In this document: one piece after another, positions 24,927 through 26,119 of the stretch
How positions within the stretch are numbered: position 1 is the first letter of the stretch
Layout of the letters: every line of letters starts with the position of its first letter
Sequence record: PZ379176.1
From: a phage
Direction: 5' to 3' (one strand)
Length of the DNA stretch: 64,000 nucleotides
The notes under the pieces: generated by a model
What the model saw: the letters and a program-made list of their open reading frames with translations, nothing else
Databases searched by the model: none
What the model was told of the DNA's origin: nothing
Translations under genes and position numbers: made by a program

Positions 24927-26119
24927 ATGACTACTCGTATCCGTGTTCTTCCTTATGGCCCTTCTGATTCAGTTCGTGAACTTACTTCTGCAATTAACAC
25001 TAAGATTCAGGAACTTCGCTTAAATGCTAACGTAATGTCTCTGGTATCAGAAGGCTCTCGTTATCGTTCTCGAGTTGGTGATATTGTTGTCAACTATGGA
25101 AACCGTCGATATAATGATGCTTTCTTTGGTGGTGCAACTGTATTGAACTCTGTGGTTGCCTTGAACCGAGCCGCTAACAAAATGACAGCATTTCAAACTT
25201 TGGAAGCTGCTGGGGTACATACTGTAGAATACACAAACAGTGCTGCTCAGGCTTCAGAGTGGACTCTGGATAGTGTTGTTTATGAACGTGCTATTCTGAA
25301 TGGTCATTCTGGAGAAGGTATCACTGTTCGTCTTCAGGGTGAAGGTGTAGCTCCCGCCCCCTCTATACCCGTGGCATTCTAGGCCCACGTCGTGAATGGC
25401 GTGTTCATGTGTTTGAAGGTGTTATCACCTATGTTCAGAAAAAGATTCGCCGTAATGGTTATCGTGAAGATCCTTCCTATCGTGAAGACGTTCGAAACCA
25501 TCATACTGGTTGGGTTTATTCCTCAAACTTCCAAGATGCGCCGCCTGATCAGGTTCTGATTCAAGCCCACAAAGCTGTATCTGCTCTGGGTTTGAACTTC
25601 GGTGCTGTTGACCTGATTAGCAAAGGTACTAACGCTTGGGTTCTGGAAGTTAATACAGCTCCGGGCCTGACTGGAACAACTCTGGAAACTTACACTCACA
25701 ACATCGTTGAGTTTGTTAAGAGTTTCTCTGGTGTTGATCCTGACTACCGCGTTGCTTACGAACTGCCTGTTGAAGAAGTGGAAGAGTTTGCTGAATCAGC
25801 AGATGACGAGAACTTTGCATTGACAGCTGAACCAGTTGTTGAAGAGTCTTCGGAGCCTGTTCCTGAAACAATGCAAGTGGAAGAACAAGGGTTAGAGATC
25901 AACCCTGTAACCCGTCGTACTTTACGTCGTGGTTATTACATCGCTAATATCAAGCACCCTGAGAATGGTTCAACTGTAGCAAGTAATGTGATCTTGTTCT
26001 TCTGTGGTCGTAACTTCTACCGCTCTGGGTGGAATGCACCGATTGGTGATCGCCAGCTTGGTCGTGTGTTGCAGATTAACAGTCTTACCCTGAATGATGG
26101 CACTGTTGTAAACTACTAA
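24927..26119 (+). CDS. ATP-grasp ligase (RimK-like), reading frame interrupted by a -1 shift at a C5 run near 25357-25361
   Basis: N-part has GHSGEGI; C-part has EWRVHVFEG and VLEVNTAPGL; track splits it into 24927-25382 and 25409-26119 in different frames. Confidence 0.55.

Follow-up and report, generated by a model that had tools for sequence, protein, structure and literature searches.

The ATP-grasp gene and its frame break

The window, that is, the whole analyzed stretch of 64,000 nt from record PZ379176.1, derives from a phiEco32-like coliphage (Kuravirus, Gordonclarkvirinae); with 1.6 kb surrounding the site described here as query, 96 phage records were matched, nearly all of Escherichia or Shigella phages. 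The gene under study is a homolog of phi32_80 (Table 1). It is annotated in ShigP1 and phiEco32 as one 1194-nt CDS, named "ATP-grasp enzyme" or "ribosomal protein S6 glutaminyl transferase" (phi32_80). The break in the given sequence, described in an earlier sequence-only reading as an ATP-grasp gene split at a C5 homopolymer, is indeed present, and the end of frame 1 lies at 25382, as had been stated. The 151-aa ORF terminates with ...GVAPAPSIPVAF (in a longer stretch, ...GEGVAPAPSIPVAF), and alignment to homologs places its final six residues (SIPVAF) out of frame. The half with EWRVHVFEG and VLEVNTAPGL had been assigned to the -1 frame opening at 25343, and both motifs were found there in the translation ...PLYTRGILGPRREWRVHVFEG...VLEVNTAPGL.... 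Besides EWRVHVF and NHHTGWVY, this frame covers the hinge (PLYTRGI), the Mg/ATP motif LEVNTAPG, an acidic linker and a C-terminal domain of 82 aa. Its first called start codon is GTG at 25409, and the ORF as called comprises 236 aa. Neither of the two ORF products was present in identical form among ~15 billion proteins. Both frames are open over 25343-25382, and the C5 run lies inside this overlap.

Adding one C to the run in silico yielded a continuous 397-aa ORF that reads ...GVAPAPLYTRGILGPRREWRVHVFEG... across the junction; the junction-spanning tryptic peptide of the repaired protein is LQGEGVAPAPLYTR. This agrees with the earlier proposal that one additional base joins the two halves, except that the interval then given for the run, 25356-25362, is about one base off, as it corresponds to G + C5 + T. 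The repaired product is identical to ShigP1 XOF09000.1 at 397/397 residues and matches phrog_2599 end to end (residues 1-397, E=3e-187), which excludes a chance juxtaposition of two ORFs. Compared with phiEco32 gp80 (phi32_80, YP_001671825.1), two residues differ. Judged from the alignment, the break falls in the middle of the predicted catalytic core, after the Gly-rich loop and before the hinge; therefore, neither fragment is predicted to be a functional enzyme.

Table 1. Coordinates of the ATP-grasp gene, its two reading frames and the homopolymers at which genes of the window are broken.
Feature	Position	Strand	Remarks
ATP-grasp (RimK-like amino-acid ligase) gene, phi32_80 homolog	24927-26119	+	Single 1194-nt/397-aa CDS in relatives; one base missing here
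Upstream ORF as read	24927-25382	+	151 aa; residues 1-145 authentic, including Gly-rich loop GHSGEGI
-1 frame	25343-26119	+	Opens after TGA 25340-25342; stop 26117-26119
C5 homopolymer, missing-base site	25357-25361	+	Within tract CCCGCCCCC 25353-25361; C6 in ShigP1, phiEco32
A5 homopolymer	24241-24245	+	A6 in ShigP1, phiEco32, Bas90; A5 in EcM-vB1, EcK-vB, EcP-vB
G4 homopolymer	38815-38818	+	G5 in ShigP1, EcM-vB1, phiEco32, Bas90
C5 homopolymer (+ strand letters)	61897-61901	gene on -	C6 in all four references

Protein family and gene neighborhood

PHROGs assigns the gene to the class "moron, auxiliary metabolic gene and host takeover". Searches of Pfam and PDB with the single sequence returned ATP-grasp matches at sub-threshold level only; in Pfam, both Dala_Dala_lig_C (16.8 bits, cut-off 24) and RimK (16.8 bits, cut-off 21) remained below the gathering thresholds. 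Significance was reached only when a profile of 11 homologs was searched against PDB. This profile matched 7qyr (E=1e-8) as well as 5zct and 4iwx (~1e-7) over profile positions 47-248, contiguously across the junction. The label "ATP-grasp" in the sequence-only reading is hence backed at the profile level by the E=1e-8 match to RimK-family ligases, although the Pfam matches are sub-gathering, and the repaired protein can be regarded as a divergent RimK-like ATP-grasp ligase with this candidate activity. Residues H127, S128, G129, G131 and I132 as well as E241, N243, P246 and G247 are invariant across the 11 homologs and align with the RimK motifs GxxGxGV and EVNxxPG; L146, E157, R159, H161 and V162 are invariant, too.

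The C-terminal domain (25872-26119, residues 316-397, 82 aa), preceded by the acidic linker at approximately 25710-25870, matches a separate family, phrog_20552, to which no function is assigned. Distant IMG/VR homologs of 237-318 aa (L019-L024) lack this domain, which might serve in substrate targeting.

The gene belongs to a module with conserved order: COOH-NH2 ligase, amidoligase, class-II glutamine amidotransferase (GATase), two small ORFs, ATP-grasp, two small ORFs, gamma-glutamyl cyclotransferase and then primase/helicase. The phage amidoligase/GATase/GGCT module was analyzed by Iyer et al. 2009 and is summarized, in a passage of PMC11318856, as a cell-wall receptor modification that blocks superinfection. 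The gene underneath the frame break is an ordinary conserved Kuravirus homolog of phiEco32 gp80, in a module that has already been described.

The GATase gene apparently starts with a non-canonical ATT at 22454, directly before the catalytic Cys (ATT TGT GGC = I/M-C-G, 22454-22462) and with AGGTGGA upstream. This start is annotated in phiEco32 and Bas90 (2031 nt), and a shorter CDS in ShigP1 and EcM-vB1; the ORF list of the window gives TTG 22793 only. An extra disruption of the GATase N terminus (ShigP1 CDS of 1689 nt vs 2031 nt in phiEco32) was considered and rejected as an annotation or start-codon issue, the N terminus of the gene being intact.

The junction in related phages

The sequence-only reading had proposed a comparison with related phage genomes. 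For this comparison, a 121-nt query over the junction was used, and the span of each subject was compared with the matched part of the query. Among the matches listed, 57 of 60 phage records have one additional base over the junction. The three exceptions, EcM-vB1, EcK-vB and EcP-vB, were all deposited by one Egyptian laboratory, and out of approximately 98 records the missing-base defect occurs only in those of one laboratory. ShigP1 and phiEco32 read CCCGCCCCCC (C6), the window and EcM-vB1 CCCGCCCCC, and EcK-vB and EcP-vB CCGCCCCCC. In Bas90 the sequence is CCCGCCCCTC (CCCCTC); here, a synonymous CCC>CCT exchange abolishes the homopolymer and keeps the frame.

All 11 IMG/VR loci, with protein identities of 34-99%, possess a single ORF over the junction and keep the residues GHSG.GI...PLY...E(W/F/Y)R(V/I)HV. 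The additional base in 57 of the 60 listed records, the single ORF in 11 of 11 IMG/VR loci and the conserved junction residues together indicate that the one-frame gene is ancestral and under purifying selection and that the state in the window is derived.

Homopolymer contractions across the window

Over the 7.27 kb between 21001 and 28268, the window shows 0 substitutions relative to ShigP1. The differences consist of two 1-nt homopolymer deletions, A6>A5 at 24241-24245 and C6>C5 at 25357-25361, each of which breaks a gene. The first shifts the frame of the final ~80 codons of the GATase gene (22454-24483, +), the neighbor of the ATP-grasp gene, and in tblastn, residues 1-608 and 597-676 of GATase accordingly matched in two different frames.

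Scanning for frame switches by tblastn with all ORFs of at least 100 aa from Bas90, phiEco32 and ShigP1, we found exactly four affected window genes against each of the three references: those for GATase, the ATP-grasp protein, DNA polymerase and a 1005-aa virion protein. Each of the four switches coincides with a homopolymer that is one base shorter in the window, and one added base restores the exact reference length. The 614-aa family-A DNA polymerase gene (38101-39944, +) is split by the G4 run into 241 + 367 aa, and one additional G restores 614 aa. The contraction at 61897-61901 reduces the gene of the 1005-aa phi32_19-like tail/virion protein (- strand, ~59016-62041) to a 939-aa ORF, cutting off the N-terminal ~48-66 residues; again, one additional base restores 1005 aa. 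In control scans, no switch was detected for Bas90 ORFs in ShigP1, and a single one, in a small ORF, for phiEco32 ORFs in Bas90.

A similar picture emerged for isolated 1-nt indels. The numbers of sites at which the window was shorter or longer were 10:0 against ShigP1, 6:2 against Bas90 and 9:2 against phiEco32; three to four of these indels lie in long ORFs, all of them deletions. The corresponding shorter:longer ratios for pairs of references were 2:3 (ShigP1-Bas90), 5:3 (ShigP1-phiEco32) and 3:3 (phiEco32-Bas90), with 0-1 in long ORFs. EcM-vB1 reached 15:2 against Bas90 and 12:1 against phiEco32, with six in long ORFs. Run lengths at the sites were read from explicit local alignments and not from BLAST columns.

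Additionally, we identified non-coding 1-nt contractions relative to ShigP1 at 4288-4292, 14598-14601, 40005-40008, 33037-33040, 1623-1626 and 1638-1643, in contexts that include a terminator-like T-run, a C-run and an RBS-ATG spacer. The contraction at 4288-4292 (T6 in three references) is as clear as those at the four coding sites; the run-length differences at 14602 and 1644 are ambiguous in some references. The A4 run at 33037-33040 is also A4 in phiEco32 and may be a natural polymorphism, so that not every contraction is necessarily an error.

The relationship of the window to ShigP1 is mosaic, with identities of 99.6% over 18378-33546, 99.9% over 11975-18324 and ~96-98% over 36908-63952. 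In the region 8430-8910, which encodes a homolog of phi32_119 or a YadA-like tail protein, a T-run at ~8434 differs from phiEco32, as it does in EcM-vB1. Short internal repeats at 8708-8868 gave multiple offset BLAST matches, and one ShigP1 ORF of 121 aa has an apparent frame change there. The differences in this region may reflect natural variation, a change in repeat number or another error.

The Egyptian sister records

The sister records are EcM-vB1 (PV574017.1) and EcK-vB and EcP-vB (PV591327.1, PV591328.1). Compared with Bas90, at least six genes of EcM-vB1 are frame-switched, including those for the large terminase, the gamma-glutamyl cyclotransferase and a 329-aa module protein; examples of lesion sites in this record are 72688-72691, 24087-24091 and 16232. 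Its annotation lists gene halves separately; the ATP-grasp gene, for instance, appears as two entries named "metal ion binding protein". The paper on EcM-vB1 predates the sequencing of its genome, as whole-genome sequencing was then not available to its authors, and it names no platform (PMC11699686). Our literature search returned no mention of EcK-vB or EcP-vB.

EcM-vB1, EcK-vB and EcP-vB share one SNP haplotype at the five informative sites in 2.6 kb around the gene, yet the missing C is placed differently among them, C3GC5 vs C2GC6. At each of these five sites the window agrees with ShigP1; its deletion states at both 24241-24245 and 25357-25361, however, are those of EcM-vB1. Given this mismatch between deletions and haplotypes, inheritance would need convergent deletions or sub-kb recombination patches. 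A recurrent technical error that depends on sequence context would explain the conflict and requires nothing extra.

Origin of the frame break

Considering all these observations, the frame break is very probably a sequencing or assembly artefact in which a real C6 was called as C5. Since plaque formation is not plausible for a phage with a split DNA polymerase, the lesions in the DNA polymerase and virion-protein genes must be errors, and if these are errors, the pipeline drops bases in runs of 5-6. What decides for an artefact at the ATP-grasp gene is that the same one-base contraction breaks three other genes of the window, the DNA polymerase gene included, a fact absent from the sequence-only reading. 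That reading had left homopolymer error, programmed -1 frameshifting and a recent inactivating mutation side by side; the first is strongly supported, the second effectively refuted and the third much less parsimonious.

We infer a technical cause from the missing base itself, its restriction to this assembly and the three sister records, and the deletion-biased pattern. The C6 of the real genome would have been reduced to a C5 call, as with a homopolymer-compressing read technology or an unpolished long-read consensus. Runs of C5 or C6 are short for errors in modern Illumina data, and an artefact therefore presumes a homopolymer-sensitive platform or pipeline. In the real phage, the gene would almost certainly be intact and encode the homolog of phiEco32 gp80, a RimK-like ATP-grasp ligase of 397 aa, and the "split" is almost certainly not a biological feature.

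A further observation runs counter to an artefact: the GATase and ATP-grasp lesions shared with the Egyptian records sit in the same dispensable-looking module, which real module loss would also predict. We weighed a recent, real 1-nt deletion, with ATP-grasp and GATase as genuine pseudogenes of this lineage, for example because selection on an accessory module had relaxed while the phage was propagated. Such an origin is unlikely. It would account for the two lesions common to the window and EcM-vB1 in one accessory module and for the different 1-nt loss of EcK-vB and EcP-vB in the same gene, as expected if the module decays after the first gene loss, and the PHROGs class of the gene suggests that its loss may be tolerated. 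However, lesions of identical appearance in the DNA polymerase and a major virion protein are impossible as real events in a viable phage. Moreover, two frameshifts would have had to arise with 0 substitutions relative to ShigP1 over 7.27 kb, the deletion states and SNP haplotypes are incongruent in both directions, and the confinement of the defect to one laboratory's records out of ~98 likewise speaks against a biological event.

There is a slim chance that both kinds of event occurred, with the GATase A6>A5 contraction and the losses in the CCCGCCCCCC tract of the ATP-grasp gene being real and only the lesions in the polymerase and virion-protein genes being errors. The records would then document a sewage Kuravirus lineage that is shedding its amidoligase/ATP-grasp/GGCT module. 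If true, the recurrent independent hits (C3GC5 in two genomes, C2GC6 in two) would mark a mutational hotspot or an on/off switch of an accessory host-modification module.

The idea that the same tract is a hypermutable contingency (phase-variation) site, switching the module on and off in phage populations, is very improbable. It could draw on the two different one-base losses within the same 10-nt C-rich tract among near-identical genomes. Nevertheless, only contractions were seen and never expansions, all in the frameshift-laden records of one laboratory, whereas tract length is invariant in the 57 other listed records and Bas90 interrupts the tract. A run of 6 nt is also shorter than typical phase-variable tracts, and length changes in both directions among clonal isolates from independent sources, as a phase-variable site would display, were not found.

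We give next to no credence to programmed -1 ribosomal frameshifting or transcriptional slippage at the C-run, by which the full-length ligase would be made with the 151-aa product as the default: although the P-site tRNA-Pro could re-pair from CCC to CCC after a -1 slip, the shifted product is exactly the ancestral protein and an SD-like AAGGTG is located ~10 nt upstream, this arrangement was rejected for want of a slippery heptamer, a downstream RNA structure and conservation. Specifically, the zero-frame codons GCC CCC TCT contain no X XXY YYZ heptamer, and the A-site change TCT>CTC cannot re-pair. The 88 nt from 25363 to 25450 fold with -19.7 kcal/mol vs a shuffle mean of -18.7 (z=-0.37), and the relatives that read the gene in one frame carry AAGGTG as well. 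Relatives do not share the two-frame architecture, given the single ORF in 57 of 60 listed phage records and in 11 of 11 IMG/VR loci, and the synonymous CCC>CCT of Bas90 destroys the run. The 151-aa default product would lack the hinge and the catalytic motifs. As for transcriptional slippage, the tracts on which RNA polymerase is known to slip are far longer than C5.

With an artefact as the preferred explanation, the findings are foremost relevant for quality control: homopolymers were under-called in this assembly and in its three sister GenBank records, and real genes are split as a result. The affected genes are those for the ATP-grasp ligase, the glutamine amidotransferase, the DNA polymerase and a tail/virion protein, as well as that for the large terminase in EcM-vB1. 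Automated annotation then lists the halves as two spurious entries, labelled "metal ion binding protein" or "hypothetical protein". These records would mislead a search of the Kuravirus amidoligase module for pseudogenes, for programmed frameshifts or for differences in gene content.

Comparison with known systems

The closest counterparts of the locus are phiEco32 gp80 and ShigP1 XOF09000.1; in both phages, the gene occupies the corresponding place of the same module, and the window differs in being one C short of C6, so that it reads as 151 + 236 aa. The assemblies of EcM-vB1, EcK-vB and EcP-vB resemble the window in their deletion-biased 1-nt errors in several genes, essential ones included, with an identical lesion in EcM-vB1 and neighboring ones in EcK-vB and EcP-vB. 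The window is nevertheless a different genome from EcM-vB1, with a ShigP1-like haplotype and 98.3-98.5% identity over 15-17 kb around the gene.

At the protein level, the profile aligns contiguously over ~200 residues with RimK-family alpha-L-glutamate ligases (7qyr, 7qys, 5zct, 4iwx; E=1e-8). In this alignment, the phage motif GHSGEGI pairs with GTQGIGV, the hinge PLYTRGI with MVQEYI, EWRVHVF with DIRCFVV and LEVNTAPGL with VMEVNSSPGL. The similarity is distant, and the phage protein adds the acidic linker and the 82-aa C-terminal domain (phrog_20552); the database name "S6 glutaminyl transferase" is an annotation by similarity only.

Among -1 frameshift sites known from bacteria and phages are A AAA AAG in dnaX and G GGA AAG in lambda G/GT. 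The window shares with these sites the overlapping frames joined at a homopolymeric tract, but it lacks both a tandem-slippery heptamer and a stimulatory structure, and the two-frame arrangement is not conserved.
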